This document shows, piece after piece, positions 16,095 to 46,459 of a stretch of 64,000 nt of DNA. This DNA comes from a virus, in the IMG/VR virus record IMGVR_UViG_3300048592_000564, positions 1-64,000 of that record; one strand, given 5' to 3'. The first letter of the stretch is position 1. Every line of letters begins with the position of its first letter. Made by a program: the position numbers and the translations under genes. The notes below the pieces were generated by a model, which was given only the letters and a program-made list of their open reading frames with translations, had not been told where the DNA came from and did not search any database.

Positions 16095-16135
16095 GATTGC
16101 CTCACTTGCATCGACTGTTCAGCGCCGTTTTTTAT

Positions 16136-16210
16136 CGGGACCGGCGGGATTCGAACCCGCGACCTCCCAGCGTCTATTGCCAGGTGGGCTGACCACTGCC
16201 CCACGGTCCC
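16136..16210 (-). tRNA. atypical tRNA, element 2: 6-bp anticodon stem, loop AATAGAC (nominal anticodon UAG), short variable loop
   Basis: GGGACCG-TG-GGGC-AGTGGTCA-GCCC-A-CCTGGC-AATAGAC-GCTGGG-AGGTC-GCGGG-TTCGAAT-CCCGC-CGGTCCC-G; lacks U33 and encoded CCA. Confidence 0.8.
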
Positions 16211-16212
16211 AG

Positions 16213-30063: not shown

Positions 30064-30764
30064 TCACCGTCCTGATGGCCGCCAAGACCTCCGCCGAGTA
30101 TATGCCCAACGCGATCGGGTCCCTGTTGGGCCAGACCTTCCAGGACTGGCACCTCGTGATCGGGGTCAACGGCATCCCGGACCAACCGGCCGTCGCCAAT
30201 CAAGCGTGGAGCACCGGCGAGCGCAGCATCCCGAACGACGTCTACGAGATGGCGTGGCTCTACACGCGGCCGTTTTACTCGCGCGTGACCCTCATGAACA
30301 TGCCGGACGCGCGCAATAAAGGCGAGGCCCTGAATCGCATGATGGAGCACGCCCAGGGCGAGTACGTCGCGATCCTGGACGTCGACGACCTCTGGCACCC
30401 GAGGAAACTGGAACTCCAACTCGAAACCGCCCGCCAGACCGGCGCGGACGTGATCGGGACCAGGGGGATGTATTTCGGGGCCGCGCGCGGCTCAATCGGG
30501 GTTCCGGCAGGGCCGGTGACGCTCGACTACCTGCGGCGGCAGAACGGGATCTTGAATTCGTCCGCGCTGATCCGCCGCGAATTCGCCTGCTGGGAACCGA
30601 TGGACGAACCCCTGGAGGATTACGAGCTTTGGCTCCGGCTCGCCAGCACGGGCCACCGGCTCCACAACGACTCCGACTACCTGACCTTCATCCGCTGCCA
30701 CGCGGCCCAGTGGTCCCACGGAAATTGGCACATCGAAGAATTGAGGAAACGCTATGGCGGCTAA
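30060..30764 (+). CDS. GT2 glycosyltransferase
   Basis: ITVLM..SLLGQTFQDW, EYVAILDVDDLW..KLE.Q, EDYELWLR. Confidence 0.9.
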   Translation: MITVLMAAKTSAEYMPNAIGSLLGQTFQDWHLVIGVNGIPDQPAVANQAWSTGERSIPNDVYEMAWLYTRPFYSRVTLMNMPDARNKGEALNRMMEHAQGEYVAILDVDDLWHPRKLELQLETARQTGADVIGTRGMYFGAARGSIGVPAGPVTLDYLRRQNGILNSSALIRREFACWEPMDEPLEDYELWLRLASTGHRLHNDSDYLTFIRCHAAQWSHGNWHIEELRKRYGG

Positions 30765-32253
30765 CAAACGAGTTGCGCTCTGCTGTTTTGCGACCGGACG
30801 CTACAAGGAATTCCTTCCCGATCTGGCCCGCACCGCGAGGGAGCACTTCGACCCCGGGGACACGCTCGACCTCGTGGGCTTCGTGGACAACGATCAAACG
30901 CCCGCCGGATTCGACCGCGTGTTCCAGATCCCGCACCTCCGCTGGCCCTACGGGACCCTCTACCGCTACCGCTGGCTGGCCGAGCGCGAGAAGGAACTCT
31001 CACAGTACGACTACCTGTTTATGTGCGATGTCGACATGCGGTTCGTCGGCCCGGTCGGGCCCGAGATCCTGGGCGGGCTCGTGGGGGTCCTGCATGCCGG
31101 GCACCTGAAGAAAAACCCCCAGGCGCTGCCCTACTGCCGCCACAAGGGTTCGACCGCGAGGGTGCGGCCCGGACTGGGCACCCGCTACTACGCGGGCGGG
31201 TTCCAGGGCGGGGCCGCGCGCCAGTACCTCAAGGCCTGCCGGCACATCGCGGACAACATCACGCAGGACGAGCGACACCACTACATCGCGGACTGGCACG
31301 ACGAGTCCCACTGGAACGCCTATCTGGTCAGCCGCCCGCCCGCGGTCTCGCTTTCGCCGCAATACTGCTGGGGTGAACCGGACGGCTGCCCACCAGGCAC
31401 CAAGATTCTCGCGCTCGCGAAGGACCACGCGGCGTTCCGGAGTGACGGGGCCGACCCGGCGTCCATCGCGCCCGTCACGGCACCGCCCGAACCCCCGGCC
31501 CCCGTGCCCGCCACGGCGCCCCAGAGCCGCCAGGACGTGAAGGAACTGGTCCGGGCGGTCCAACGGTCCAACCTGCGGCCCGACGCACAGGCAAGCCTCC
31601 AGGGCCTGCTGGGTCAGCTCGACCGGGTACTCGACCGCGCGGCCCCGCGGGTCATGCACGCCGGCCCGCAGGGAGATCTTGCGGCGGTCCTGCGCGAACT
31701 CCTGCCACGCGACCCCGTGGTCTACGTGGACGTCGGGGCCTCGGAGCCGGTCGATTGCTCCAACACCCACCCGTTCTATCTCGCGGGCGGGCACGGGCTC
31801 TTGATCGAACCCCGGCCCAGCTGCTGGTACGCGATCCTGCTCCAACGGCCGCGCGATCGCCTCTACCCGAAGGCGGTCGCGGCCCAGGAGGGCTGGGCCG
31901 ACATGAAGCTCTGCGATGCCTGCTCGTCGCTCGACCAGACCTGGACGAACGAAAAACGGGGCGAACTGCTGGTCCAGACCGAGCCCCTGGGTACCATTCT
32001 GCATCGCTTCCCCGAGATCCGAGACGCCTGCCAGTTGGTCTCGATCGACACCGAGGGGACCGAGGAAGCGGTCATCGGGTCCGTGGACTGGACCACATTC
32101 CGCCCCCAGGTCGCGGTCGTCGAGCATGCGTCATTCCAGCGACCCGAGGAATCCGAGCACCGCGCGGACGCGATCCTGGGGCTCATGCGTGAAAGAGGCT
32201 ACCGGGTCGTCCACCGGGACGCCATCAACCTAGTGTTCAAGAGGATACCATGA
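30754..32253 (+). CDS. GT6 (ABO-like) glycosyltransferase fused to an FkbM methyltransferase
   Basis: FATGRY, YDYLFMCDVDM, YYAGGFQGG, WHDESHWN; Pro-rich linker; YVDVGA...SNT...IEP...SIDTEG.E. Confidence 0.9.
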   Translation: MAANKRVALCCFATGRYKEFLPDLARTAREHFDPGDTLDLVGFVDNDQTPAGFDRVFQIPHLRWPYGTLYRYRWLAEREKELSQYDYLFMCDVDMRFVGPVGPEILGGLVGVLHAGHLKKNPQALPYCRHKGSTARVRPGLGTRYYAGGFQGGAARQYLKACRHIADNITQDERHHYIADWHDESHWNAYLVSRPPAVSLSPQYCWGEPDGCPPGTKILALAKDHAAFRSDGADPASIAPVTAPPEPPAPVPATAPQSRQDVKELVRAVQRSNLRPDAQASLQGLLGQLDRVLDRAAPRVMHAGPQGDLAAVLRELLPRDPVVYVDVGASEPVDCSNTHPFYLAGGHGLLIEPRPSCWYAILLQRPRDRLYPKAVAAQEGWADMKLCDACSSLDQTWTNEKRGELLVQTEPLGTILHRFPEIRDACQLVSIDTEGTEEAVIGSVDWTTFRPQVAVVEHASFQRPEESEHRADAILGLMRERGYRVVHRDAINLVFKRIP

Positions 32254-32810
32254 TTCTGGAAAGCAATCTCCCCCGCTGGCTCGTCCGCGCCTTGTCGGTG
32301 CGGTTTGGCATCCGGCAATTCGTCGAAACCGGGACCCTGGAGGGCCACACGGCCGCACTGGTGGCCGAGGTCATCCCCGTGGTCCACACGATCGAGATCA
32401 GCCGCTCGATGTACGACCGGGCTACGAGTGAATGCCGCAAGAACCCTCGGATCACCCGGCACCTCGGGAGTTCGGTGGACGTCATTCCTCAGCTTCTACC
32501 CAGCCTTGCCGGCCCGACGCTCTGGTACCTGGACGGGCACTGGTCCGGCATGGGGCCGAAACTCGGGATCGAGTGCCCGGTCCTGCAGGAACTGGCGCTC
32601 ATCCAGGACAGGCCGCAGGACGTGATCGTGATCGACGACGCCCGGCTGTTCGACGCCCCGCCCTCGCCCCCGCATGATCCCGCCCAGTGGCCCAGCACTG
32701 CCGAGGTCGTGGCCGCCGCAAGGGCGCCGGGACGACACGTCGCCCGATTCCTCGACAGCATCGTGGCCAGCCCCACGCCGCTCTTTGCCGCCTTCCAGGA
32801 GACCCATTGA
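32250..32810 (+). CDS. SAM-dependent methyltransferase-like protein
   Basis: FVETGT..G, TIE, G.S, LDGHWSG, IVIDDARLF. Confidence 0.75.
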   Translation: MILESNLPRWLVRALSVRFGIRQFVETGTLEGHTAALVAEVIPVVHTIEISRSMYDRATSECRKNPRITRHLGSSVDVIPQLLPSLAGPTLWYLDGHWSGMGPKLGIECPVLQELALIQDRPQDVIVIDDARLFDAPPSPPHDPAQWPSTAEVVAAARAPGRHVARFLDSIVASPTPLFAAFQETH

Positions 32811-33547
32811 TGCGTATCCAGGCATTTCTTCCCACATTAGGACGCCCGCACCTGATCGAAGAGGCAATCACGATGTTCTGCCTCCAGAGTTATCAGGACC
32901 GCGAGCTCTTGATCTACGACACCGCGAACCAGATGCCCGAGCAACAGGGCGACCGCTGGCGGATCGTCCACCAGGGCGAGCATCCGTGGTCGATGGGCAC
33001 GACCTGCAACGTCGGGATCAGGATGTCGGACGCCGAACTGGTGTGTCGCTGGGACGATGATGATATGTACGCCCCTTGGCACCTTGAAGCCATCGTGGAA
33101 GCCCTGCAGACGAAGCCCTGGGCCTGCCCGTACAGCGTCTGGGACGCGCAATTCAACCTGGACCGCCCACTGCTCTGCCGGCCCTACCGGAAGACCACTG
33201 AGGATCTCGCCTACGCGGGCACCTGGGCATTCACCCGCGCGGCCTTCGAAGAAATCGGGGGCTACCGCGAAGATTGCTTCCGCGAAGAGGAATGCGAGTT
33301 CCGCACGAGGCTCCACAACCGCTACGGGCCGCCGGCGGATTCCACGGCCGGCCGATTTCCAGCGACCAGCTACGTGTACGCGTGCAACCAGGACCGGGTT
33401 CCCCACTACGGCCAGATGACCGACGACCAGCGACGCGCCCACCAGCGGAAGGCGTGGCCCCGGTGCGACAAGATCGAACCGAAATGGCCCCGCCGCTACA
33501 TGCTCGGGCTGGCGAATGACGGCAAAATCCATCCCCGGAAGTTCTGA
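32810..33547 (+). CDS. GT2 glycosyltransferase
   Basis: PTLGR...Q.Y...ELLIYD, CRWDDDD.Y, IGGY..EE. Confidence 0.8.
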   Translation: MRIQAFLPTLGRPHLIEEAITMFCLQSYQDRELLIYDTANQMPEQQGDRWRIVHQGEHPWSMGTTCNVGIRMSDAELVCRWDDDDMYAPWHLEAIVEALQTKPWACPYSVWDAQFNLDRPLLCRPYRKTTEDLAYAGTWAFTRAAFEEIGGYREDCFREEECEFRTRLHNRYGPPADSTAGRFPATSYVYACNQDRVPHYGQMTDDQRRAHQRKAWPRCDKIEPKWPRRYMLGLANDGKIHPRKF

Positions 33548-33548
33548 G

Positions 33549-34175
33549 ATGCCAATCCCTAATCAGGTCCGGAACGATAACAGCGACGGATTGCGAGAAT
33601 CCGACGTGACACTCGTGGTCTTCGCCCCGCCCCGCAGCGGCAGCACCTGGGTGGGACAAATCTGCGGTGACGTGCTGGGCCACGGGGTCGTGAACACCCA
33701 CACGTGGCTGGACCTTCCTGGCGTGCCGGTCCTGGCCGTGATCCGGGACCCACGGGATTGCGTGATCTCCCACTGGCGATTCCGCTGGCCCCAGGAGGTC
33801 GAGCAGTACGGCACGATTCCCCGCGAGCGGGCCGTGAACCTCGCGGCGTTCTACGGCCAGGAGTTCCTGATCCTGGAACGGTGGAACCAAACCAACGAGC
33901 CCGTGGTGCTCCACTACGAAAAGCTCCGGCGCTGGCCCACGCTGGTGTTCGACGCCCTGGAGTCAATGCTTGGCCTGCCCACAAAGAAACGCGACCGACG
34001 CCGCATCCTGGCCGCCCGGTCGCTCCGGTCCAATCGCCGCGCCCTGGAGCCAGGCCACGTCCACGAGGGCCGGGTCGGGACTTGGAAGCAATTCGTCAAC
34101 CAGGACTCGGCCCGGTTGCTCACTTGGTTGCTGGGGCCGATCTGCCGGCACTACGGATACAAGGAGGCGAGATGA
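33549..34175 (+). CDS. sulfotransferase
   Basis: PRSGSTW (5'-PSB loop), RDPRDCVIS (3'-PB motif), YEKL, GRVGTWK. Confidence 0.85.
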   Translation: MPIPNQVRNDNSDGLRESDVTLVVFAPPRSGSTWVGQICGDVLGHGVVNTHTWLDLPGVPVLAVIRDPRDCVISHWRFRWPQEVEQYGTIPRERAVNLAAFYGQEFLILERWNQTNEPVVLHYEKLRRWPTLVFDALESMLGLPTKKRDRRRILAARSLRSNRRALEPGHVHEGRVGTWKQFVNQDSARLLTWLLGPICRHYGYKEAR

Positions 34176-35094: not shown

Positions 35095-35443
35095 TTACGT
35101 GACCTGCCGCTACGAGCTCCCGCCTGAGTTCCCCCGGGACCTTGAATGGCAAAGCAAGAGCACCCCGGCCCAGTACCTGGACCACTACGAGATCCGCGAG
35201 GATGGGTCACTGTGGCACGAAACCTATGTCCATCGGGTCGAGACTCAATCAGATGGCTATTTCAACGTGCAGATGTATCGCGACAACCCGGAGTGGAAAC
35301 GCGAGGACTTCACTGGCGAGCTGGAGATCCACAGTAGCGACGACCGGCACTGGTACACGGTCCAGTTCTGGTTCCGCGACGGCGTCGTGAAGGATTTTGT
35401 GGCCAACGCCACCCCGTTACACAAAAAGGAGTGTGTCACATGA
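35081..35443 (+). CDS. phage hypothetical protein
   Basis: MGVFDYV.C...WQSK...Y.I..DG.L...FTGE...F.DG, a recurrent phage pattern. Confidence 0.6.
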   Translation: MGVFDYVTCRYELPPEFPRDLEWQSKSTPAQYLDHYEIREDGSLWHETYVHRVETQSDGYFNVQMYRDNPEWKREDFTGELEIHSSDDRHWYTVQFWFRDGVVKDFVANATPLHKKECVT

Positions 35444-36399
35444 AGGTACTGGTCACCGGAGCCGCAGGCTATATCGGGAGTGCCGTTTGCTGGAAACTCC
35501 TGGAACACGGCCACGAGGTCGTGGCGCTCGACAACCTCAAGTACGGGACCGCCGACTCCGTGCCGCCCGGCGTGCCGCTGATCCGCCGCGACCTCGCGAG
35601 CCCCCAGGATCAACTCGCGATCGTGTACGCGCTAGAGAGCAACCAGATCGAGGCCGTGGCCCACCTCGCGGCCGAGAGCCTGATTCCCCTTTCGTTCGAG
35701 CAGCCCGAGCTATTCTGGCGGGTCAATGTCACCGGTGGGTTGATGTTGCTCGACGCCATGCGGCGCGCGGGCGTGCGGCGAATCCTCTACAGTTCCACGA
35801 GCTCCGTCTATGCCGAGCACCAGCCGATGCCGCTCACGGAGCAGAGCCCGATCGGGCCCAGCAGTTGCTACGGTGCGTCGAAATATGCGTTCGAGGATGC
35901 CCTGCGGTGGATGCGTAATTTGTCGTGGGTGGCGTTCCGGTACTTCAATGTCTGCGGCGCGACCGAGCACGTAACGGAAAAGCCGTACCATAGAAGCCGT
36001 TTAGTTCCAGTGGCCCTGGACGTCGCCTATGGCCGAGTCCCAGGGCCAATGCCGCTCAATGGAATCGACTACCAGGAAACGCGGGACCACACATGCTTGC
36101 GTGATTACATTCACGTCGACGATATCGCTCAGGCTCACGTCGCGGCCCTGGAGCACCCCGGTGCCACGGGTGTGTTCAATCTCGGGATTGGACGAGGATA
36201 CACCAATCGAGAAGTCATCGAGGCCGTTCGCCGAGTAGCAGGCAAGCCAGTTCCAGTCGTCGAAAAGCCGCGCCGCCCAGGAGACCCAGCCATGCTGGTT
36301 GCTGACGCTTCAAAGGCAGGCCGTGAACTGGACTGGGGCCCGGCCTACACCACCATTGAGCAAATGATTGAAACGTGCTGCAAATACGAACAGTTGTGA
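35440..36399 (+). CDS. galE: UDP-glucose 4-epimerase
   Basis: VTGAAGYIGS, HLAA, SSTSSVY, YGASK, RYFNVCG, RDYIHV.D, RRPGDP. Confidence 0.9.
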   Translation: MKVLVTGAAGYIGSAVCWKLLEHGHEVVALDNLKYGTADSVPPGVPLIRRDLASPQDQLAIVYALESNQIEAVAHLAAESLIPLSFEQPELFWRVNVTGGLMLLDAMRRAGVRRILYSSTSSVYAEHQPMPLTEQSPIGPSSCYGASKYAFEDALRWMRNLSWVAFRYFNVCGATEHVTEKPYHRSRLVPVALDVAYGRVPGPMPLNGIDYQETRDHTCLRDYIHVDDIAQAHVAALEHPGATGVFNLGIGRGYTNREVIEAVRRVAGKPVPVVEKPRRPGDPAMLVADASKAGRELDWGPAYTTIEQMIETCCKYEQL

Positions 36400-36408: not shown

Positions 36409-36511
36409 TTGAACTCGTGCTTTCAAAACGCTAAAATGCGAACGGCCCGAGCGTCGTTACCGCCCGAGCCGTTCTAACCACTTCAACCTGCAAGGAGGTT
36501 TCATCGTGGCT
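36409..36511 (+). promoter_or_regulatory. HNH leader, copy 1 (promoter and two hairpins)
   Basis: TTGAAC-17-TAAAAT-GCGAACGGC..GCCGTTC-TAACCAC..AACCT/AGGTT..GTGGCT. Confidence 0.75.
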
Positions 36512-37459
36512 CAAACATATTCTAGCGATCCGAGGCGTCCAGCGAAAGGCCAAATTGGTGACAGGTTTGGTCACTGGAAACTCATTGGCTTTGAAAGATG
36601 CGTCAAGCGAAACAAGCTCATGTATTTGTGCAAATGTGACTGCGGAACCGTTCGGGCACTGCAACCCGGCGCGCTGTTTGGATGTACCAGTACGTCGTGC
36701 GGGTGCCATAGAACCGCGATTCCGCCAGCACCTCCGCTGCCCACTGTCGATTCCGTAGAGTTCAGGACGCTCGAGCAATATCCTGGATATGCGTTTGGAA
36801 GCGACGGGTCGGTTTGGGGTTGCAGGGCAAGAGTGGTGGGGCGTGAACGCGGAAGGTGGACCAAGATAAATGGAGCCAAGGACAAAAACGGGTATCTTCG
36901 CGTGACAATCACGACGAGGTCCAGTTCCAAGACTCTCAAAATTCATGCCCTCATCCTTGAGGCGTTTACCGGCCCAAGGCCGCAGGGTTGTGTAAGCCGC
37001 CACCTGGACGGAAACCAAGCAAATAACGCAATAGCCAATTTGGCGTGGGGAACTCCCGCAGAAAACCAACGGGACTCTATATTGCATCGCACGCACGCAG
37101 GGCTGCGAAACAGCGGACGCGACAACCCAAATGCCAAGTTGTCGTTTAGTGACGTGGCTGAGATCATGCGACTAAAGCACGAGATGCCTTGTCGGGACAT
37201 CGCGAAACGATTTGACGTAACCGAAGGTGCCATCAAGTCCATATTCTCAGGCCGAACATGGTCGCACCTCACTGGAGCTGACGAAGAGTCCCAGACAATG
37301 AACCAACATGTGCGCGAATGGATTTCCTCGATCATGCAGTCTCCGCTTGGCATTGATTCAATCGCCTCCGCCCTGGATGAACTTGGGTATCGCTTAGCCG
37401 AAAAATGCACAGGCCGACATTTCGACGAACCAAATCAAACCGCCCAGGCATGCTTATGA
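36506..37459 (+). CDS. HNH homing endonuclease (one CDCG domain, NUMOD4-like, HNH, HTH)
   Basis: CKCDCG..SCGC; YPGY..DG; HALILEAF.GPRP..RHLDGN..NN...NLAWGT..EN; NPNAKL. Confidence 0.9.
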   Translation: MAQTYSSDPRRPAKGQIGDRFGHWKLIGFERCVKRNKLMYLCKCDCGTVRALQPGALFGCTSTSCGCHRTAIPPAPPLPTVDSVEFRTLEQYPGYAFGSDGSVWGCRARVVGRERGRWTKINGAKDKNGYLRVTITTRSSSKTLKIHALILEAFTGPRPQGCVSRHLDGNQANNAIANLAWGTPAENQRDSILHRTHAGLRNSGRDNPNAKLSFSDVAEIMRLKHEMPCRDIAKRFDVTEGAIKSIFSGRTWSHLTGADEESQTMNQHVREWISSIMQSPLGIDSIASALDELGYRLAEKCTGRHFDEPNQTAQACL

Positions 37460-37580
37460 CCGATGGCCCCATGACCTTCAAGTGGACGCCACCAAAGTCC
37501 CCGCTACACTTCCCTGGAGCAAATGATTGAGTCCTGCTGGAAGTGGGAGCCGAAGTCTCAATAACCGAAGGAAAGTATCT

Positions 37581-37958
37581 ATGTTGAATCGACGCACCCT
37601 ACTAGGCGGCCTTGCTGCCATTGCTTCTGGAGTTTGGTGTCAAGCAAAAACACTCGCCGCCCAGCGACACGATGGCGATGGTTCGACCATCTCTCCAGGC
37701 CAGCCCACCTGCCGAACTGCCTGGGTGTCCAGTGGACGCAAGCTGGATTTCGAGCGGTTTCATCGCGAATTTTCTATGGCGAGCTATCAGGGCCACAGGG
37801 TCGTGAACGCAATCAGCGTCTCCGATCGCAAGGGACGGACCGAATGGTATATCTGCCTGTCCGACGACACGGCCGAGAATCCCTACGATGAGATGCCGGC
37901 CAGGTTTGCGGGCCTCTTGTGCGAGGAAGCCAAGCGTCGACAGGAGCCCGCCGCATGA
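37581..37958 (+). CDS. hypothetical protein with Tat-like signal
   Basis: MLNRRTLLGGLAAIA. Confidence 0.5.
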   Translation: MLNRRTLLGGLAAIASGVWCQAKTLAAQRHDGDGSTISPGQPTCRTAWVSSGRKLDFERFHREFSMASYQGHRVVNAISVSDRKGRTEWYICLSDDTAENPYDEMPARFAGLLCEEAKRRQEPAA

Positions 37959-38134
37959 AAGCGTTTTGGTGGTGGTTTTGGACAATCAGTTCATTTCTGT
38001 ACGCGATATTCTGGCTTCACGCTGCCGCGACTCGCAATACCGACCACATGATGTCCTGTTTTGCAGCAGTGATCGCCTGCGGCGCGATGACCCGAACCTA
38101 CGAGGAGAAGCCATGCACGCCTACCGCCCCGTGA
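37955..38134 (+). CDS. small membrane protein
   Basis: AGGAG RBS; two hydrophobic segments. Confidence 0.45.
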   Translation: MKAFWWWFWTISSFLYAIFWLHAAATRNTDHMMSCFAAVIACGAMTRTYEEKPCTPTAP

Positions 38135-38493
38135 TTGACCGCTGCTGGATTGAACGCGAGAACGGCCACCAGCGCGACTACATCGACGCCATCGTGGCCC
38201 GCTACAACCAGCTGACGCTCGACCCCGACCGCAAAGAGCGAATGGCCGCCCAGCAGTGCGTGGTCTGCTGGAAGACCAGCCGGATTGGCGGCGCGGCCTG
38301 CACCCAGAGGCAGTGTGGACTTTGCGACACCACGCTCCACAGCGGTAGCACTAACATTGACGTATTGTGCCCTGAGTGCGCGCGACGTGCCAAACTGTGC
38401 CGGCACTGCGGGGCCGACTTGGAGCTGAAGAACCGACGCACCCGAGACATGCCGGAGCGAACGCCCGATATCAAGGAGGACGAGGAGTGCTAG
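38113..38493 (+). CDS. Cys-rich putative zinc-binding protein
   Basis: Four CxxC pairs; GAGGAG RBS. Confidence 0.55.
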   Translation: MHAYRPVIDRCWIERENGHQRDYIDAIVARYNQLTLDPDRKERMAAQQCVVCWKTSRIGGAACTQRQCGLCDTTLHSGSTNIDVLCPECARRAKLCRHCGADLELKNRRTRDMPERTPDIKEDEEC

Positions 38494-38879
38494 TTTGCCG
38501 AATCGAAATCTGGCCCCACGGATCATACGCCCGTCGGCGCACCCTCGGGACGCTCGTGATCGCGAACGACGGGACGGGCACCCAGGAGATCGGGCACTAC
38601 GACTGCGCGGTCGCGCACGCGGGACCGTATGCGGGAAAACCGGGGGCATGGCGAGGCGGTCGAGTGATCGGACACCTGCGGAAGCTCTCGCCCTATCACC
38701 TTGTGCGTGAAGCCCTGGCGGCGTGCCTGGAGGGGCGGCGTAGCAAGCGGGCCGACGGTCTGATCCAGCAGGTTCGCGACGCCGAGAGCGCCAAGCCGAT
38801 GATTGCGTTCGACAGCGCGGAAGAAATGCGAAAATTCACCGAGGGGTTCGCATACCGGCCCCAGGAGCAAGGATTATGA
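38487..38879 (+). CDS. phage hypothetical protein
   Basis: MLV..IEIWP.G...LG...IANDGTG pattern. Confidence 0.55.
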   Translation: MLVCRIEIWPHGSYARRRTLGTLVIANDGTGTQEIGHYDCAVAHAGPYAGKPGAWRGGRVIGHLRKLSPYHLVREALAACLEGRRSKRADGLIQQVRDAESAKPMIAFDSAEEMRKFTEGFAYRPQEQGL

Positions 38880-39061
38880 AGCTCGTCATCCAAGAACAAA
38901 AAACCAACGGCGTGGTGGCGAAATCCAGCACGACCACAACCTACCAGCCGGACGACGAACTTCGAGAGGTTGTCCATTATCTCGTGCGATGTCTCCAGAG
39001 CCTCACCCTGACGGCCGAACGTATCGTCAAGGTGATCGAACGCGAAACCAAGGGCGATTAG
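38876..39061 (+). CDS. hypothetical protein
   Basis: AGGA RBS, ATGA coupling. Confidence 0.45.
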   Translation: MKLVIQEQKTNGVVAKSSTTTTYQPDDELREVVHYLVRCLQSLTLTAERIVKVIERETKGD

Positions 39062-39137
39062 TCAAGGACGACCCAAAGGCCCAGGGATGGGCCACTTTTT
39101 GGAAATTTTGCATGTGGATCTGTCCACTGAAAGTCTG

Positions 39138-39214
39138 TACAATGCGAACGGCCGCTGGGGTGTCGCCCAACGGCCGTTCTGACCACCATCAACTTCAAGG
39201 AGTATCAGATGGCT
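39138..39214 (+). promoter_or_regulatory. HNH leader, copy 2
   Basis: TACAAT-GCGAACGGCCG..CGGCCGTTC-TGACCACCATC..ACTTC/GGAGT..GATGGCT. Confidence 0.75.
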
Positions 39215-40174
39215 AGCACCAATCCTAGCACGCGCAGCCCAAGATTCAAGGATGAAACAGGAAAACGATACGGGCGATGGCTTGTTGTGTCTCACGTCGG
39301 TGGCGAATATTGCCAGTGCAAATGCGACTGCGGAACCGTTAAAGACGTGCTTCTTGCGGCGATACGCAAGGGCCAGTCAAAGAGCTGTGGATGCGCCCGC
39401 TATGACAACCTTCCAGATTTGACAGGCGCAGTCGTCGGCAAATGGACGGTTCTGGCGATGTGCGAAAAGTCCTCACCGAATGACGCACGCCGTTGGCTAT
39501 GTAAATGCGTGTGCGGCACAGAGAAGTCGGTGCGCGACGAATCACTGCGAAACGGAGAATCTACATCTTGTCGATGCGAACAAAAGAATGCTCATCCGAG
39601 GCTGTCCACAACCGACCAGTGCCCAATATTTCCAGTCAGCGAATCGGCAATAATCAAGCATTGCCCAGGGTATCTCGGCTATGCCGTCAGCGATCACGGG
39701 GATTTGTTCAGCTGTAGAAATAGAAACGGTTTCGCTGGGGCAGCAAAGCAATGGAGGCAATTGACGCGTCTCGGGTCCGACAAGGACGGCTATCGACGGA
39801 CAGTGTTTACGATTGACGGCAAACCGCATTACGTTAGACGCTGTGTTTTAGTGTTAGAGGCATTTATTGGGCCACGTCCAGAAGGAATGATGGTGAGACA
39901 CCTTGACGGGCATAACACCAATGATCGCTTGGACAATCTGGCCTGGGGTACTGCATCAGAAAACCAGCAAGATGCTGTCAGGCACGGAACGCAATCAGGA
40001 CTAAAGGTGCGCGGTGAATCCACGCCTAACCATAAGATCACCGAGGCCGATGTTATCGAAATACGACGCTTGGCAGGAACCATGCCCCAGAGGGCAATTG
40101 GCGAACTAGTCGGATTAACCCAAACCACGGTTGGTCAAATAATCAGGAGACAGGCATGGAAGCATGTCGCGTAA
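39209..40174 (+). CDS. HNH homing endonuclease (two CDCG-type domains, NUMOD4-like, HNH, HTH)
   Basis: CKCDCG..SCGC and CKCVCG..SCRC; LEAFIGPRPEG..RHLDG..NLAWGT..EN. Confidence 0.9.
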   Translation: MASTNPSTRSPRFKDETGKRYGRWLVVSHVGGEYCQCKCDCGTVKDVLLAAIRKGQSKSCGCARYDNLPDLTGAVVGKWTVLAMCEKSSPNDARRWLCKCVCGTEKSVRDESLRNGESTSCRCEQKNAHPRLSTTDQCPIFPVSESAIIKHCPGYLGYAVSDHGDLFSCRNRNGFAGAAKQWRQLTRLGSDKDGYRRTVFTIDGKPHYVRRCVLVLEAFIGPRPEGMMVRHLDGHNTNDRLDNLAWGTASENQQDAVRHGTQSGLKVRGESTPNHKITEADVIEIRRLAGTMPQRAIGELVGLTQTTVGQIIRRQAWKHVA

Positions 40175-41073
40175 TCAAATCCCAGGCACCCTGTAGGATT
40201 TCCATCTGCGGCGGTTCGAGCGACCTGTCCTACCACTGGAGGCGACATCGTGGCTTTTTGGTCACGGCCGCGATCGATAAATACGTGACCGTCACGGTGC
40301 AGCCGGGAAATCGAATTGACACATCGCCCCAGCACCCATACGCGACCGCAGCAGGCTGGAGTTCACGCGATCTGGTCACCATCGAAAGTGACCTGCTTCC
40401 TGGAAGTGGGCTGGGCGGAAGTTCGTGTCTTATGACTGCACTCCTGCGCGCCCGCCATTCTGACCTTCCGGTTCACGAGCTTGCGATGGCGGCCTACCAC
40501 GCCGAAAGGTTTGGTCAAATCGCAGCCCCAATTGGGTACCAGGACGGCTTCGCGGCAGCGTTCGGCGGTTGCATTGCCCTGGAGATCGACCACGCGGGCC
40601 GGGTCGCAACATGGCCCGTCGCGCTCCCCGCCGACTTCGAGCGCCGCCTTGTCCTGATGAACACTGGGGTTCAGCGCCCAGCCGCCGACGTGCTAAGGAA
40701 GCAAGAGGCGGCGACCAGCACGTCACTGGTAAGCCGGGAAGCGATGGAGTCGATAGCCAATCTTGGCCACGAAATCTACGCCGATATTCGCGACAACCAA
40801 GGCCAGAATTTCGGCCCCATGCTTGATCGTCACTGGAAATACAAACGAGCAGTTGCTAGTGTGATGTCAAATCCAGCGATCGACGCATGGTACGACCTCG
40901 CCCTGGATCACGGTGCCACCGGAGGAAAACTGATTGGCGCAGGGAGCTCCGGCTTCTTTTTGTTTGTCGTCCCGCCCGACCGTCGCTACCATTTTGTCGA
41001 CACCATGACGGCCGCGGGCCTGACGGAGCTTCCGTTCCAGTTTACCGACCAGGGGGCGAGGATTATCAAATGA
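40156..41073 (+). CDS. hddA: D-glycero-alpha-D-manno-heptose-7-phosphate kinase-like GHMP kinase
   Basis: APCRISICGGSSD, GSGLGGSS, GYQD..AAAFGG, W..KR..SN..ID..Y, GGKLIGAG. Confidence 0.8.
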   Translation: MEACRVIKSQAPCRISICGGSSDLSYHWRRHRGFLVTAAIDKYVTVTVQPGNRIDTSPQHPYATAAGWSSRDLVTIESDLLPGSGLGGSSCLMTALLRARHSDLPVHELAMAAYHAERFGQIAAPIGYQDGFAAAFGGCIALEIDHAGRVATWPVALPADFERRLVLMNTGVQRPAADVLRKQEAATSTSLVSREAMESIANLGHEIYADIRDNQGQNFGPMLDRHWKYKRAVASVMSNPAIDAWYDLALDHGATGGKLIGAGSSGFFLFVVPPDRRYHFVDTMTAAGLTELPFQFTDQGARIIK

Positions 41074-41276
41074 ACGACCTCATCGAAGCGCTGACGATCC
41101 TCCTGAAATACGGGAATCCCCGAAATCCGACGCACTGCGAGCACGACCAGCTCACGATCGCGGAAATCGACCCGAACGACGTCTCGCCAGAGGACCGGGC
41201 CAGGCTCTACGAACTCGGGTTTTTAGTGTCCGAGGCCGACGAGTGCTTTATGTCATTTCGATACGGGAGTGCGTGA
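41070..41276 (+). CDS. phage hypothetical protein
   Basis: MNDLIEAL.I..KY...PTHCEHD...SFRYGSA. Confidence 0.6.
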   Translation: MNDLIEALTILLKYGNPRNPTHCEHDQLTIAEIDPNDVSPEDRARLYELGFLVSEADECFMSFRYGSA

Positions 41277-41442
41277 TGACACCCGAGCAAGCCATTGAAC
41301 TGATCGAGAGAACCCTTGTGGAGCAGAAGCTAGCTCTACAGGCGTGGCACGACGCTTGGCTAATGCAGGGCGAGGGCCGCGTGCTCGCGATGGTGGAGGC
41401 CCACCGGAAGACCTGCCGGGCACTGGGGATGGAGGAGAACAC

Positions 41443-41664
41443 GTGAGCGCCGAATTTTTCGCCGTCCAGGAACAAGATCGCTCACGGCTAGACCGCGCGA
41501 CCAAGACTACCTACGTGAACCTGGACGCGATCCTGTACGTCGACGACTACGGGGTTCGAGGCGAGCCCATGCGGGTGTCGTGCGTCGGAAAGGAAACCTA
41601 CTGGCTTGTAAACGACGACGCCGAACGGCTCGTCGCAAAGCTGAAGGAACGGTGCAAGTCATGA
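41443..41664 (+). CDS. hypothetical protein
   Basis: GGAG RBS, GTGA coupling. Confidence 0.45.
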   Translation: MSAEFFAVQEQDRSRLDRATKTTYVNLDAILYVDDYGVRGEPMRVSCVGKETYWLVNDDAERLVAKLKERCKS

Positions 41665-42257
41665 GCCCAACTACCAACCTCCTGGACTGCTGCGTGCGGT
41701 CCATCCAAGGGCTCGACCACGAGCAGATCGACGACGCAGCCAGAATACTCTCCCGCGTTAGACGCGAACGCGGTCGGCTATTTCTCGCCGGCTCAGGCGG
41801 CGGGGCCGCGCACGCCTCGCACGCCTGCTGCGATTTCAGAAAACTTTGCGGCATCGAGGCATACTGTGTCTCGGACAACGCCGCCGAATTGACGGCCCGC
41901 GTCAACGACGACGGCTGGGAATCCAGTTATGCGAACTGGCTTCGGGTGCCCCGGCTTGATCGCAACGACGCCCTACTGATCGTGAGCGTCGGAGGAGGAT
42001 CCACGCACCCACCGGTATCCACGAACCTCGTGACCGCAATGGAGTTCGCTCGATCGCTCGGGGCCGCTACCCTGGCCGTGGTTGGCCGTGATGGAGGACA
42101 CGCGGGCCGGGTGGCCGATGTCGCGGTCCTGATCCCGTGCGATCGGCCGGAATTCGTGACGCCGGTCACGGAGGCGGTCCAGAGCGTAGTGCTCCACGCC
42201 CTCGCGGTCCATCCCCTGTTGGCAATCCTGAAGGCGAAATGGGAGGGACTTGTATGA
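41661..42257 (+). CDS. gmhA: phosphoheptose isomerase (SIS domain)
   Basis: GSGGGAAHASH..DF, LTARVND.G, SVGG..S.NL, GRDGG, E..Q..LH. Confidence 0.85.
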   Translation: MSPTTNLLDCCVRSIQGLDHEQIDDAARILSRVRRERGRLFLAGSGGGAAHASHACCDFRKLCGIEAYCVSDNAAELTARVNDDGWESSYANWLRVPRLDRNDALLIVSVGGGSTHPPVSTNLVTAMEFARSLGAATLAVVGRDGGHAGRVADVAVLIPCDRPEFVTPVTEAVQSVVLHALAVHPLLAILKAKWEGLV

Positions 42258-42421
42258 ACGCGAGGACGTTGCGGTTTGCGATGAGCTTCATTACCGGATC
42301 ACTGACAGGAGTTGCCATTGCGGAACTCAATCGCGGCCATCTCGCGACCGCAATTGGATTGACGCTTGCCGTTGCTGTGTCGGTGTTTTTCCGCTGCCTA
42401 ACGATCGAGCATTCGCCATGA
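42254..42421 (+). CDS. small membrane protein
   Basis: GGAGG RBS; two hydrophobic helices. Confidence 0.45.
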   Translation: MNARTLRFAMSFITGSLTGVAIAELNRGHLATAIGLTLAVAVSVFFRCLTIEHSP

Positions 42422-42744
42422 ACCCCTACGAACAATGCTTCCATGACCTCGGGATCGAGTCCCCCACGATTGAAGACCGCCGGGCCCTGCGCCGTCTGGT
42501 CGCCACCGTGGCGCCCGACGTCCGGACGGTCGAGCGAGCCCGCCTCGAGGCGTCCACGCAGCGTCGACGGTGCCGCGAGGACGACGCCAGGGTCGACGTG
42601 TTGCGAGACGCCATCGAGGCCGTGCTGGCGCTACCGCGTGTCCCGGGCACGATTGAACGCAGGCTCCAGGCCGCGATGGACGCGACCGCCTACGACGGCC
42701 GGACCGTGCAAGAGATCGTCCGCGCCGCCGGGGAGGTGACGTGA
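42418..42744 (+). CDS. hypothetical protein
   Basis: ATGA coupling. Confidence 0.45.
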   Translation: MNPYEQCFHDLGIESPTIEDRRALRRLVATVAPDVRTVERARLEASTQRRRCREDDARVDVLRDAIEAVLALPRVPGTIERRLQAAMDATAYDGRTVQEIVRAAGEVT

Positions 42745-42836
42745 CGAGCAGATTTTTGTTGTTTTGTCGCCATGACGTGGCTACCATCCTGCAGGAACGC
42801 TACGCATCTACGCGGTTGGGATTGAAAGCAAGTCAC

Positions 42837-43748
42837 ATGGGACCCAAGAGAATTAAGCCGCATACCAAAATAGTTGATGTTCGCCGCGAACCAGACAAAA
42901 TCCTTCCCGTGTCGTGGATCAGCCTTGCTGAATCAACCGCCCATGAACTTGCGTATCGCTTTGGCATGTCCTACGAGCACGTTATCTCGATTTCAAATGC
43001 AATCAAAGACGGAATGGCTCACGTGTATCCGTCTCTAAATGGAATATCCAGAATCGACGCAGGCAAACAGCACACGTGGTTTGCCCGAATCCATCGCGGC
43101 GCAGTGTCCGGCAGTCACACCGCAGCCAAGTCGTTCGCCGACAGCCGATGCGGTGGGCGAGAAAAGGCCCTTCAGGCAGCAAGGCAGTGGCGAGACGACA
43201 CGCTGGCTACGATAGTAATCGCAACACCAAAGGAACACGCCTGTGTAAAAACGACCAATCGGCAGCGGCGCGAAACTATGGAGAAGCAATTGCAGGTGCA
43301 TGGCAAGTGCTACATGCGAACCGGAACCGGCTTACTGGCAAGCAAGCGAGCCGCGATTGAGTTTGGCCAGCACGGCAAGACCTGTGCGGCGATTCGCGAT
43401 GGTGCTCAGGACGGCTTCTACCTTGGCGGCAACCGGCCGCGTTACGCCGTCGCCGGCTTCATGAATGAAATCACGCCCAGGATTGAAAAGCAGATCCGAC
43501 GAGAAATCAGGAGACGAGCCAGGCACTGGATGTCCAGCGAGGACATTGAACTGGCGGCGAGCAACGCTATGATGTCCTGGGCGTCAATCGACCTGTCTAG
43601 CGTATCGGAAGACTATATTGAACGACTGGCAGGAAGCGTGGTCAGGACCGCCGACCGAAGACGCTCGGCAGAACGAAAAAAACAGGGGGTATCGCTTGAT
43701 CTTAATGGCGAGATCGAAACCCTAGAGCGACAAAGAGAACGATGGTAG
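42837..43748 (+). CDS. AP2-domain-containing protein
   Basis: GISRID...WFARI...KSF.D...GG.EKAL..A..WRD; own promoter TTGTTT-17-TACCAT at 42759-42787; lower GC. Confidence 0.65.
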   Translation: MGPKRIKPHTKIVDVRREPDKILPVSWISLAESTAHELAYRFGMSYEHVISISNAIKDGMAHVYPSLNGISRIDAGKQHTWFARIHRGAVSGSHTAAKSFADSRCGGREKALQAARQWRDDTLATIVIATPKEHACVKTTNRQRRETMEKQLQVHGKCYMRTGTGLLASKRAAIEFGQHGKTCAAIRDGAQDGFYLGGNRPRYAVAGFMNEITPRIEKQIRREIRRRARHWMSSEDIELAASNAMMSWASIDLSSVSEDYIERLAGSVVRTADRRRSAERKKQGVSLDLNGEIETLERQRERW

Positions 43749-44193
43749 CAACGGGCCATTTGCCGCGCATTCTTGTTGAGTGCTCGGTGTCCTCTTCAGC
43801 TTTCTGGCTGACCGCGGGGGGACGGCATATATGGAAGCGTCACCGCCATCTGGCCCATTGCTACCTCGACAGCAAATTAAGACAACGCCCCGGTTCACCC
43901 AGTCGCCGAGGTGGACCTTCCATTTGAATCCGACCCAACCGGCGGCTTGGGTGCAACCGATGGTTCGCCATGACGTTCGCGTGCTATTGGGATCGCCTCC
44001 GGGCCGCAACACCCGGCCTGAGCAACGACGAGACCTCGATGCGGATCAGCGTCTTGAACTTCCGGCTCGCGATCAGCCGAGCCTACGCGGCCGGACGTGA
44101 CGAGGCCCGGCAGCACATCGAGCGAACCGCCGACGAACTCACGGGCGACCAGGGCATCATGGACGTGTTCAAGGGGATTTTCGGGGACAAGCG

Positions 44194-44565
44194 ATGACAA
44201 GATTTGAAAAGTTACTCGCGTACCTGCTCAAGTACCATTTTACCTACGACGAACTGGAAAAAATCGTCGACCTCAAACTGGAATGCGAGCACTATAGCGA
44301 CATCGAGAGAGTCGTGTTTCCTGAATTGTCCCCAGCGGTCAATAAGCTATTGGCCCGGATGGGATGGGACGAAAAGCCGTACATTGAACGACTTCTTGAT
44401 GAGCAAAGGCTCTATATGCAGGCGATCCATCAAGACGAACTGGCAGAACGGCAGGCCCTTATCGAACGCATGCACACGCAATGCCATTCGGTTCGCAACC
44501 TTGCTAGCATGCGCGACGCCGCCCAAAGGTTTTTGCGTGACACCGAGGACTGTAAGGTCTCATGA
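44194..44565 (+). CDS. hypothetical protein
   Basis: ATGA coupling on both sides. Confidence 0.45.
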   Translation: MTRFEKLLAYLLKYHFTYDELEKIVDLKLECEHYSDIERVVFPELSPAVNKLLARMGWDEKPYIERLLDEQRLYMQAIHQDELAERQALIERMHTQCHSVRNLASMRDAAQRFLRDTEDCKVS

Positions 44566-45059
44566 ATCAGGCATGCTTTTTCGATCTCGACGGAACTTTG
44601 GTCCGCGCTTTCCCCGAGGGCGACACCACCCGTGGACCACGGACCCGCGATGAGGTTGAAATCCTGCCGGGCACCAAAGAGTCGCTCGACCGACTATTCG
44701 ACGCAGGCTACGCGTTGCTTGTGGTCACGAACCAGCCGGGACTTGCCCGCGGCGACCTCGACCCATTGGAACACGCGGGCGTTCGGCTGATGATCCGCGT
44801 GGAACTGCCGGTTCGCAAAATCTATACTTGCCCGCACGACGGCGACTGGTGCGCATGCAGGAAGCCGCGGCCGGGGCTCATCATCGGAGCCGCGGTCGAA
44901 TACGAACTCGACCTCGCCCGCTGCTGGATGATCGGCGACCGGGAGTCGGACCGTGAGGCCGCGATCCGGGCCGGGATCCCGCAGGCCCAGACGATCAAGC
45001 TCGAAACCAACCAAGGCATCAAGGAGGCGGTGGACGCAATCCTTGCCTTTGCAAAATGA
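44562..45059 (+). CDS. gmhB: D,D-heptose 1,7-bisphosphate phosphatase (HAD-IIIA)
   Basis: FDLDGTL, VTNQPG, CPH...C.CRKP.PG, MIGDR.SD. Confidence 0.85.
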   Translation: MNQACFFDLDGTLVRAFPEGDTTRGPRTRDEVEILPGTKESLDRLFDAGYALLVVTNQPGLARGDLDPLEHAGVRLMIRVELPVRKIYTCPHDGDWCACRKPRPGLIIGAAVEYELDLARCWMIGDRESDREAAIRAGIPQAQTIKLETNQGIKEAVDAILAFAK

Positions 45060-45071
45060 CCGTTTTTATAC

Positions 45072-45171
45072 TTGAACGACCGTACAGTAATCGGTAACAT
45101 GCGAACGGCCCGGACGTTGGAGCGCCCGAGCCGTTCTAACCACCATCAGCTGTAGGGAGCGTCAAGTGGCT
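45072..45171 (+). promoter_or_regulatory. HNH leader, copy 3
   Basis: TTGAAC-17-TAACAT-GCGAACGGC..GCCGTTC-TAACCAC..GCT/AGC..GTGGCT. Confidence 0.75.
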
Positions 45172-45756
45172 TCGATAAATTGTATCATGGACTGCCCGCC
45201 GTTGCCAGTTGTAGAAGGTGTTGAAATTCGGCACTGCGAAGGATATCCAGGGTACGCCATTGGCAGCGATGGCTCCCCGTGGTCGTGCCGGCCGTGCGTC
45301 CGAACTGGGCTCAAAATAGCATGGAGGCGACTTACGCCATGCCCAGACAAACAAGGCTACCTGCACATCAGTTGCCAGGTGAACGGGCGGCTGATTCGCC
45401 CCAAAATAGGCCACCTTGTAGCCAACGCATTCATCGGGCCAAATCCAGGAAAGCTGGATTTGTGTCACGGGGACGGCAATAAGCAGAACAACCGCGTCGA
45501 AAACCTGCGGTGGGGGACTCGCAGCGAGAACACGCAGGACGCATTACGGCACGGCACGTTTCACATTGTTGGGCATCCAGGGGAACGTAACGCAAACTCC
45601 AAAATTACCGCATCGCAGGTCAAGGAAATTCGCAGCACCCCAGGGAAAAGCCACGTCGAATGGGCGCGCGAACTTGGCGTTACCCCAACGGCAATTTATT
45701 CAATTCGCGCAGGAAGGACATGGAAGAATGAACCAAGCCCTCGACATAACGATTGA
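45166..45756 (+). CDS. HNH homing endonuclease (NUMOD4-like, HNH, HTH)
   Basis: YPGY..SDG; HLVANAFIGP..CHGDGNK.NN..NLRWGT.SEN; GE.N.NSKI. Confidence 0.9.
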   Translation: MASINCIMDCPPLPVVEGVEIRHCEGYPGYAIGSDGSPWSCRPCVRTGLKIAWRRLTPCPDKQGYLHISCQVNGRLIRPKIGHLVANAFIGPNPGKLDLCHGDGNKQNNRVENLRWGTRSENTQDALRHGTFHIVGHPGERNANSKITASQVKEIRSTPGKSHVEWARELGVTPTAIYSIRAGRTWKNEPSPRHND

Positions 45757-46459
45757 CGTGTTTTGCGACTCCGCCGACCTCACGATCATGCACGGAATCG
45801 TGGAGCAGTACCCCTATGTGCGAGGCTGGACCACCAACCCTTCGATCTGCCGACGCTGTGGGGTCGTGGACTACAAGGGCTTTATCGTGGACGCGCTCAC
45901 GAAGCTGCCACCGCTCCCCTTGTCCGTCGAGGTTGTGGCCGACGAGCCACGCGAGATTGATAAGCAGGCCCGCTACCTGGAACGCTTGGCTCGCTTGCAC
46001 GGTCGGCGAGATACGCTGTATGTCAAGGTCCCAGCCGTGAACTCGCGCGGCATTTCGCTCGCGCCATTGATGCGAGAACTTGCCCAGGATGGCGTGCAGA
46101 TCAACGCCACGGCGGTGCTGTCCTACGAGAGCGCCGAACTGGTTACCGACGCCCTGTCGGGCGGTCCCGCCTCTTGGGTCTCGGTCTTTGTCGGGAGACT
46201 GGCCGACCGAGGCACTGAACCACTGGACGAAATGCCGCGATATGTGAAGCGGATCAACGAAGCGACCCGCACAATCTGGGCCAGTCCCCGAGAACCGCTA
46301 AACGTGCTTCAAGCGCAACGCCTCGGCTTCGACGCTATCACGGTGTTTCACGACTTCATCAAAAAGCTCCACCTGTTCGGCAAGGACTTGCGTGAGTTTG
46401 AGATTGAGACGAGCCGTATGTTCTTGCAGGATTCCATTTCGGCGGGGTACCAGATATGA
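45728..46459 (+). CDS. talC: transaldolase (TalC/FSA type)
   Basis: FCDSAD, GWTTNPS, SVEV, YVKVP (Schiff-base Lys), INATAV, SVFVGR..D, WASPRE. Confidence 0.9.
   Translation: MNQALDITIDVFCDSADLTIMHGIVEQYPYVRGWTTNPSICRRCGVVDYKGFIVDALTKLPPLPLSVEVVADEPREIDKQARYLERLARLHGRRDTLYVKVPAVNSRGISLAPLMRELAQDGVQINATAVLSYESAELVTDALSGGPASWVSVFVGRLADRGTEPLDEMPRYVKRINEATRTIWASPREPLNVLQAQRLGFDAITVFHDFIKKLHLFGKDLREFEIETSRMFLQDSISAGYQI

Follow-up and report, generated by a model that had tools for sequence, protein, structure and literature searches.

A RepX-like unit at the translation starts of three HNH endonuclease genes in a viral genome: a candidate portable antisense RNA cassette

The stretch of viral DNA considered here (the window; 64,000 nucleotides of one strand, positions 1 to 64,000 of IMG/VR record IMGVR_UViG_3300048592_000564) contains three HNH endonuclease genes, and a unit of ~115 bp lies upstream of all three and at no other place in the record, which comprises 72,344 bases with 63% G+C. 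Each of these sites is considered to be a portable cassette that combines a translation start with a cis-antisense RNA of the RepX type, known from the plasmids R1162/RSF1010, and that would restrain expression of the HNH gene; this reading is given a probability of about two in three. The unit is repeated, its helices covary and do so more strongly on the minus strand, a -10-like hexamer within it is fixed, and it shares homology with the RepX locus. The element is real and well supported, and is judged to be a variant of a known antisense RNA family in a new setting, neither a new class nor the plus-strand leader first proposed for it; three nuclease genes in one phage apparently carry a dedicated antisense repressor each, and the regulation of plasmids and phages would be linked via a common movable part homologous to a plasmid copy-control RNA.

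The repeated unit and its homology to RepX

On the plus strand the unit begins with a short T-run and a -35-like hexamer, followed after 17 bases by TAnnAT, GCGAACGGC, a variable self-pairing stretch and GCCGTTCTRACCAC; it continues with a second small hairpin containing GGAG and ends in RTGGCT (coordinates in Table 1). The recurrence of this architecture at three sites had been proposed from the letters of the window alone (the sequence-only reading) and is found at all three; for copy 2 that proposal had the unit begin at 39138, which is the -10, the -35-like hexamer actually occupying 39115-39120. The joint pattern GCGAACGGC-N10-30-GCCGTTCTRACCAC has three forward matches, no reverse match and none in a backwards-read control of the 72,344-base record. 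GCCGTTCTRACCAC by itself has three exact matches and five with at most 2 mismatches, against 1.08 expected (1 of 100 shuffles reached five); GCGAACGGC by itself, with at most 1 mismatch, is not above chance (54 vs 45.6 expected). Conservation extends beyond the start codon, where AT..TA, outside the coordinates first proposed, is invariant in the three copies (36519-36524, 39222-39227 and 45179-45184). A sigma-70 scan of 32-50 kb lists the plus-strand promoter of copy 1 and not those of copies 2 and 3; its seven promoter-like sites are no excess over the 4.9 (standard deviation 2.4) seen in shuffles.

The second and third HNH proteins are 37% and 41% identical to the first (phmmer E 1e-34 to 1e-49), and no other HNH paralogue is present among the record's 616 open reading frames (ORFs) of at least 50 amino acids. 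Relatedness of this kind would suit a leftover of gene duplication, in which the paralogues merely inherited a functionless similarity upstream; such an origin is regarded as highly improbable, as the regulatory stretches of the three copies are 68-77% identical vs 45-53% for the coding rest (45-52% for unrelated flanks, same scoring), compensatory changes preserve the helices, and in other genomes the unit precedes unrelated genes.

Exact-pattern scans recovered the unit from 2 proviral IMG/VR contigs, 46 metagenome stretches and 17 bacterial-genome stretches; 13 of these 17 were judged real, ten being from Comamonadaceae-type genera and the remaining three from metagenome-assembled genomes labelled Planctomycetota, Chloroflexi and Beijerinckiaceae. 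Stretches with an unpaired interior or with the match inside a gene were dropped as chance (L211, L229, L230 and L249 from metagenomes; L253 and L262-L264 from genomes), and those in which the RTGGCT start was not found (L218, L245, L233 and L246) were left out of the seed alignments; after removal of exact duplicates, alignment A4 holds 36 distinct copies from window, viral and metagenome sources, including the window's three. Distant copies (L199, the second copy of L212, seven Variovorax copies, L124 and L203) keep their pairing despite quite different lower stems. A match is present in 12 of 121 sampled genomes of one bacterial family, a patchy spread that suits mobile elements; together with the 36 distinct copies, the diverged ones and two covariance models, these genomes offer material for testing. 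Megablast of 36-46 kb against phage isolates and blastn of the L199 copy against plasmids gave no match. Two kinds of candidate were rejected as chance: a looser pattern, GCGAACGGC-N10-30-GCCGTTCT, hit at least 118 stretches of viral contigs, with the RACCAC tail seen by eye in none of those listed, and blastn of two copies yielded, where it found anything, a 28-base match to an HNH gene of a Streptomyces phage (E 0.03).

Folded on the plus strand, the window copies each form two hairpins (-27.7, -31.8 and -29.2 kcal/mol for copies 1-3; z scores -2.3, -3.1 and -1.6); in hairpin 2, whose predicted energy is only -5.7 to -9.1 kcal/mol, GGAG lies in the loop or the 3' arm and CCA(C) pairs with the start, and the inner pairs of this hairpin differ from copy to copy, as had been supposed. 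Across the 36 copies and 24 helix pairs, however, the plus-strand cells that are not Watson-Crick comprise 154 A.C or C.A, 7 G.U and 30 others, and an A.C or C.A mismatch on the plus strand is a G.U wobble on the minus strand. With one sequence per 75%-identity cluster the counts are 70 A.C/C.A vs 6 G.U, A.C exceeding G.U in 19 of the 19 clusters; when partners are slid by 1-3 columns the other mismatches dominate (361-491 vs 30 in the real pairs). Nearly all plus-strand mismatches are of the kind that pairs as G.U on the minus strand, and the structure is therefore considered to be selected there.

RNAalifold folds the minus strand into two uninterrupted helices of 10 and 13 pairs (23 in all; -35.16 kcal/mol) and the plus strand into 17 interrupted pairs (-17.48 kcal/mol). 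On the minus strand 97.0% of cells are paired and covariation is 0.419 (reached by 0 of 500 shuffles; slid partners at most 0.090); the plus strand has 83.7% of cells paired and a covariation of 0.284 vs 0.064 when shuffled (0 of 500; slid partners at most 0.073), with changes on both sides at 12 pairs. The covariation suspected in the hairpins is present on the plus strand and stronger on the minus strand, where the helices are selected. What is conserved is most plausibly an antisense RNA gene that overlies the ribosome site and start codon, rather than a leader acting by itself.

A plus-strand leader acting alone, with hairpin 2 hiding the Shine-Dalgarno sequence and start, hairpin 1 stabilising or insulating the 5' end and read-through transcripts folding differently, is considered unlikely. 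It calls for two hairpins in every copy and for pairing of CCA(C) with the (G/A)UGG of the start, and both are seen; its own strand also covaries significantly, and T4-type endonuclease genes are controlled by ribosome-site hairpins (PMC2988022). It is at odds with the wobble-type cells, which favour the other strand, and with a consensus energy half that of the minus strand; over the stretch of the predicted antisense RNA the plus strand folds at -29.3, -31.7 and -29.2 kcal/mol in copies 1-3 (z -2.68, -3.25 and -1.20), and for copy 3 as many as 25 of 200 shuffles were as good. It also leaves unexplained a -10-like hexamer that lies inside the coding region and is kept across unrelated proteins. 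The earlier idea that read-through and internal transcripts fold differently was not upheld: when folding began from five different 5' ends, the probability that the ribosome site and the start codon are unpaired showed no consistent opening or switch.

A covariance model of the copies, suggested in the sequence-only reading as a check, finds the RepX locus. This model, R2, draws only on the minus-strand sequences of the 36 copies and on no plasmid; it matches pRSF1010_SL1344 at 2806-2907 on the plus strand over its whole length (model positions 1-102; 36.4 bits, E 6e-11), antisense to the start of repA (2827, minus strand), and the next match has 7.3 bits. At the profile level, the unit is shown to be homologous to the RepX locus of IncQ plasmid pRSF1010. 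RepX is described in PMC8136791 as a 75-nucleotide antisense RNA, FinP-like in length and fold, that lies over the start codon and ribosome site of repA-repC and folds into a pair of stem-loops joined by a GUUA linker and followed by a short tail; it reportedly lacks three consecutive U, is bound by FinO, is visible on Northern blots and represses plasmid copy number. Within the literature covered, copy-control RNA of the RepX type is described for IncQ-1 plasmids only (PMC8136791, in the part drawn on here).

Rfam family RF00043 ('R1162-like plasmid antisense RNA'; gathering score 55 bits) gives full-length sub-threshold matches to the related loci L199, L215 and L207 (49.1, 35.4 and 32.7 bits), and 98.5 bits to pRSF1010 (L290, NC_017719) at 2820-2894 on the repA strand. 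Because of this repA-strand match, and because its consensus holds GGAG and AUGGCU, the RF00043 model is, as far as shown, the target strand, the complement of RepX as PMC8136791 describes it; the bulges of the model are G.U pairs on the other strand. The strand of RF00043 may explain why related antisense RNAs in phages are unannotated. Membership in an Rfam family already described, a possibility raised at the outset, applies in part: relatives of the unit match RF00043 below its threshold, but the window copies do not. A literature search, supplementary files excluded, returned no paper that ties RF00043, RepX or R1162-like RNA to phage HNH genes.

Predicted transcripts, proposed mechanism and counter-evidence

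The predicted antisense RNAs consist of two stem-loops, SL-A and SL-B, and a tail; in copy 1 the loop of SL-A holds the anti-Shine-Dalgarno CUCC and its stem the complement of the start codon. On the minus strand all 37 copies scored have, 9-11 bases ahead of the complement of the start codon, a hexamer whose second base is A and whose sixth is T (random places, 19%); its mean match to TATAAT is 4.08 of 6, TG precedes it in 13 of the 37, and it is conserved within the coding regions of unrelated proteins. With a start assumed ~7 bases past the hexamer, the 5' end of the RNA would fall 0-3 bases before SL-A. The tail past SL-B is GC followed in most copies by U-rich sequence; the prophage group has a good tail (GCUUUUGUG). 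Read on the plus strand, the tail corresponds to an A-rich run and, within the window, to the TAnnAT box; in copy 1 the plus-strand -10 is the reverse complement of the tail of the predicted RNA. Because of this coincidence, part of the 'conserved promoter' may be retained for the 3' end of the antisense RNA.

These signals also bear on a role at the level of DNA, either as a hairpin of the single-stranded bottom strand or as a recombination or nuclease site that marks the insertion of a mobile gene. The wobble asymmetry would be equally expected for bottom-strand DNA, as G.T pairs are tolerated in DNA hairpins; the unit is located at inserted-gene junctions, and recombinase genes adjoin it in some contigs. 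The fixed -10-like hexamer, the mostly U-rich tail and the anti-Shine-Dalgarno loop of SL-A would have no explanation in such an element, however, and the borders showed neither direct repeats nor duplicated target sequence; the homologous RepX locus makes an RNA detected on Northern blots (PMC8136791, in the part drawn on here). A purely DNA-level function is considered very improbable. Readings of the unit as CsrA-type GGA loops, a tRNA-like minihelix, a boxA-like sequence, an integron attC or an RNase III target were dropped by sequence inspection alone, because their features are not common to all copies or the spacing is unfit.

Several points weigh against an antisense RNA of the RepX type. 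The search pattern fixed 7 pairs of SL-B (hairpin 1) and ACCAC, which makes those columns uninformative; the 7 hairpin 1 pairs and the CCA/UGG pairs are invariant by construction. The plus strand of the alignment is A/C-rich (C 889, G 818, A 729, U 424), a composition that by itself favours A.C at the expense of G.U, and the slid controls give A.C to G.U ratios of 1.3 to 13; furthermore, any minus-strand fold implies a complementary one on the plus strand, which may also be active. The minus-strand -35 is at chance level (mean 2.65 vs 2.38 of 6 over 37 copies), copies 2 and 3 have poor U-tract tails (AUUGUAC and AUGUUAC), and transcription of the minus strand is so far a prediction. At the window sites Rfam gave no match at gathering scores or at E <=10; RF00043 scores 13.1 bits over part of copy 1, far below its cut-off, and matched 3 of 26 related loci at E <=1, none of which reached 55 bits. 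Lastly, a 2025 review (PMC12361487) lists IncQ RSF1010/R1162 in a table as 'No iteron or antisense system'; this entry conflicts with the RepX work as given in the part of PMC8136791 drawn on here, and with the review's own later passage on IncQ iterons.

In the RepX-type mechanism proposed here, two transcription units would overlap at each site. The sigma-70-like plus-strand promoter would drive the HNH mRNA; a -10-dominated minus-strand promoter in HNH codons 5-7 would drive an RNA of ~80-85 nucleotides that starts just inside the gene and runs back across the start codon and the Shine-Dalgarno sequence, its tail overlapping the plus-strand -10. The RNA is predicted to fold as SL-A, with its anti-Shine-Dalgarno loop, and SL-B, with 1-2 unpaired bases between them in GGUYAGA. 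It would pair with the start of the HNH mRNA, to which it is fully complementary, most likely beginning with loop-loop contact, and block ribosome binding in the manner of RepX/repA and FinP/traJ; the convergent promoters, ~80 bases apart, might add transcriptional interference. The outcome would be low or dosage-limited synthesis of the nuclease, and the differing hairpin tops and loops may prevent cross-talk among the copies, making each RNA specific for its own gene. Production of the RNA, repression by it and its presumed value in limiting a harmful nuclease, or in a link to dosage, are inferred.

A wider idea is offered tentatively and is on present evidence doubtful, namely that RepX-type cassettes, rather than being a peculiarity of plasmid copy control, are an expression module exchanged horizontally across the whole mobilome and placed on genes that are dangerous in excess, serving in phages as a gene-dosage sensor with incompatibility-like loops. 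If true, plasmids, prophages and lytic phages would attach the ~115-bp unit to replication initiators, homing nucleases and recombinases; a nuclease would be made in the first minutes after genome entry and shut off as template number and antisense RNA rise. The variable loops would then be specificity determinants akin to those of incompatibility, allowing several cassettes to coexist per genome, and recombination in the conserved stems would be one route by which free-standing endonuclease genes swap and spread.

Genes served and genomic context

The unit had been thought portable and tied to the three HNH genes of the window, and both views are borne out: a nearly identical unit stands before another nuclease family in contig L227. 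This contig is from a distant relative of the window phage, its proteins being 34-39% identical to those of window 32250-34175, and its unit is 96% identical to copy 3 over 45 nucleotides and 80% to copy 1 over 81 bases. The L227 unit leads an endonuclease VII-like gene inserted between homologues of two genes that abut directly in the window, precisely at the junction entered as the empty site in Table 1; the unit therefore appears to move with or between different nuclease genes. Alleles lacking the window's own three insertions, which had been proposed for comparison, were sought by way of the HAD neighbour, which gave one distant relative only (34% identity).

The unit is also partly independent of HNH genes, since small prophage ORFs, recombinases and IncQ repA are served as well. 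The 32 downstream ORFs (at least 60 amino acids) found elsewhere include four HNH_3, one HNH, one HNH_5, three endonuclease VII-like proteins and one integrase, and most of the others have no family match. One group of copies precedes short ORFs followed by serine or tyrosine recombinase genes; the Comamonadaceae group has one copy per provirus, with a small conserved gene upstream of it and, downstream, small proteins that are only loosely related. A tblastn search for nuclease-gene remnants behind the short ORFs of other copies found none. In 80 loci of HNH relatives, model R1 finds the unit in one and R2 in five (E <=0.1); the rows for L151 and L153 are identical, with the match ~1.9 kb from the HNH match and on the opposite strand.

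Three further arrangements were observed. At L238 (352-800) a unit near-identical to copies 1 and 3 leads only a 37-amino-acid ORF, downstream of which are terminator-like hairpins and then a phage capsid gene; this may be a cassette whose nuclease gene was lost, or the small gene may itself be what is served. L212 (10482-10710; also L216, L240 and L242) has two tandem units, the first preceding a 42-amino-acid ORF; the second, 150 bases on, is diverged (35.7 bits, different lower stem) and lies before a very short ORF, after which a tyrosine recombinase gene follows. The Variovorax chromosome G005 (the genome of L261; loci L272 and L276-L282) carries eight copies over 4 Mb, of which seven form a sub-type whose lower stem is shorter by one pair; each of the seven precedes a member of a family of 82-108-amino-acid proteins, and those tested have no Pfam or PHROG match.

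The HNH genes of the window are all inserted inside a long run of glycosylation and sugar-nucleotide genes (window 12603-46459), where they are packed tightly against their neighbours. A tRNA-Leu gene with anticodon tag is located at window 16135-16211 on the minus strand.

Table 1. Positions in the window of the HNH genes, the three copies of the unit, the predicted antisense RNAs and neighbouring features
Feature	Position	Strand	Description
HNH gene 1	36506..37459	+	317 amino acids, GTG start; HNH_3 E 9.3e-11; phrog_59
HNH gene 2	39209..40174	+	321 amino acids; HNH_3 E 2e-10; end overlaps start of GHMP-kinase gene (40156)
HNH gene 3	45166..45756	+	196 amino acids, GTG start; HNH_3 E 3e-11; abuts transaldolase gene
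Copy 1 promoter-like site	36409..36437	+	TTGAAC 36409-36414, 17 bases, TAAAAT 36432-36437; 9/12 matches
Copy 1, rest of unit		+	GCGAACGGC from 36438; GCCGTTCTAACCAC 36468-36481; GGAGG; GTGGCT from 36506
Copy 1 predicted antisense RNA, ~85 nucleotides	36428..36512	-	-41.2 kcal/mol, z -4.33, 0/200 shuffles; R2 75.8 bits
Copy 1 RNA parts			SL-A 36511-36476; linker A 36475 in GGUUAGA; SL-B 36474-36440; tail GCAUUUUAGCGU
Copy 1 minus-strand -10-like hexamer	36519..36524	-	TAGAAT; 10 bases before start codon complement
Copy 1 weak minus-strand -35	36541-36546	-	TTCGCT
Terminator-like hairpin	39078-39093		Upstream of copy 2 promoter-like site; scan-listed
Copy 2 promoter-like site	39115..39143	+	TGGATC 39115-39120, 17 bases, TACAAT 39138-39143
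Copy 2, rest of unit		+	GCGAACGGC from 39144; GCCGTTCTGACCAC 39173-39186; ATGGCT from 39209
Copy 2 predicted antisense RNA, ~82 nucleotides	39134..39215	-	-37.1 kcal/mol, z -4.29, 0/200 shuffles; R2 68.5 bits
Copy 2 RNA parts			SL-A 39213-39182; linker CA 39181-39180 in GGUCAGA; SL-B 39179-39146; tail GCAUUGUACAGA
Copy 2 minus-strand promoter-like site	39222..39249	-	TTGAAT 39249-39244, 16 bases, TAGGAT 39227-39222
Copy 3 promoter-like site	45072..45100	+	TTGAAC 45072-45077, 17 bases, TAACAT 45095-45100; 8/12 matches by hand count
Copy 3, rest of unit		+	GCGAACGGC from 45101; GCCGTTCTAACCAC 45130-45143; GTGGCT from 45166
Copy 3 predicted antisense RNA, ~82 nucleotides	45091..45172	-	-38.5 kcal/mol, z -4.09, 0/200 shuffles; R2 69.7 bits
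Copy 3 RNA parts			SL-A 45171-45138; linker A 45137 in GGUUAGA; SL-B 45136-45103; tail GCAUGUUACCGA
Copy 3 minus-strand promoter-like site	45179..45208	-	CTGGCA, 18 bases, TACAAT, TG before -10; scan-listed (9/12)
Empty site	32808..32810	+	Stop of gene B (32250-32810) abuts gene C; L227 carries unit and endonuclease VII-like gene here
Glycosyltransferase genes	12603-13955, 24163-25626, 30754-32253		Third is a GT6 domain fused to an FkbM methyltransferase domain
UDP-glucose dehydrogenase	27570-28907		
Epimerase	35431-36399		
GHMP kinase	40156-41073		
HAD phosphatase	44562-45059		
Transaldolase	45566-46459		

Comparison with known systems

Free-standing homing endonuclease genes are restrained by promoters and mRNA hairpins. 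In the T4-type genes of I-TevI, segB and mobE a hairpin covers the ribosome site and a late promoter lies inside the hairpin (PMC2988022); the window genes would resemble these in being silenced at translation initiation, with a promoter right at the structure. They differ in that the promoter stands ahead of hairpin 1 and the ribosome site is not part of that hairpin, in that the selected structure is on the other strand and in that no late-promoter logic is visible. The T4 rule of silencing, invoked in the sequence-only reading, does not carry over, as the promoter is outside the inhibitory hairpin and no consistent folding switch was found.

The PeSLs of T4-type phages are described as small conserved cassettes of promoter and stem-loop that travel with variable genes, their stem-loops being transcription terminators (PMC2839356, in the part drawn on here); in the present unit, by contrast, the hairpin is downstream of the promoter, has no plus-strand T-run and overlaps the translation start, and only three copies occur in the record, all at HNH genes. 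CfrI of the lytic cyanophage S-PM2 is cited as an antisense RNA that overlaps a homing endonuclease gene, cfrI being described as a 3' antisense RNA of the psbA region (PMC5931967, in the part drawn on here); the literature search surfaced no other antisense RNA at a homing endonuclease gene of a phage.

The SAS and ESAS of Cluster K mycobacteriophages are conserved at translation starts; the SAS stands only a few bases from the start codon, and an inverted repeat whose spacer varies lies upstream (PMC3203893). The 13-base SAS occurs letter for letter in the top of hairpin 1 at L122 (10565-10683, minus strand) and its duplicate L208, and many copies of the prophage group are one base away from it; within the window SAS has 2 matches with 2 mismatches vs 1.84 expected, neither at the three sites. 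SAS/ESAS is a possible parallel to the antisense modules.

FinP/traJ of F-like plasmids is similar in having a two-hairpin antisense RNA over an mRNA ribosome site of a mobile element, but there is no significant sequence match (traJ_5 model on copy 1, 13.9 bits, E 4.5). RepX is closest. The differences from it are that the targets are HNH_3 genes in a phage rather than the IncQ repA-repC replication operon, that three copies occur in one genome, and that a sigma-70-like promoter lies directly upstream, whereas in pRSF1010 the urfF repressor gene ends 29 bases before repA; no FinO/ProQ domain (PF04352) was found in the 72-kb record, which is rated 56% complete. As with RepX, the predicted minus-strand RNAs (36512-36428, 39215-39134 and 45172-45091) cover GGAG and the start codon; their two stem-loops are joined by a short linker, and the 3' tail is short and carries no extended U-tract. 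In copies 1 and 3 the GUUA of RepX spans the last bases of SL-A together with the linker, and copy 2 reads GUCA there; the target strand also shares the ATGGCT start, with CTAACCAC between the hairpins.

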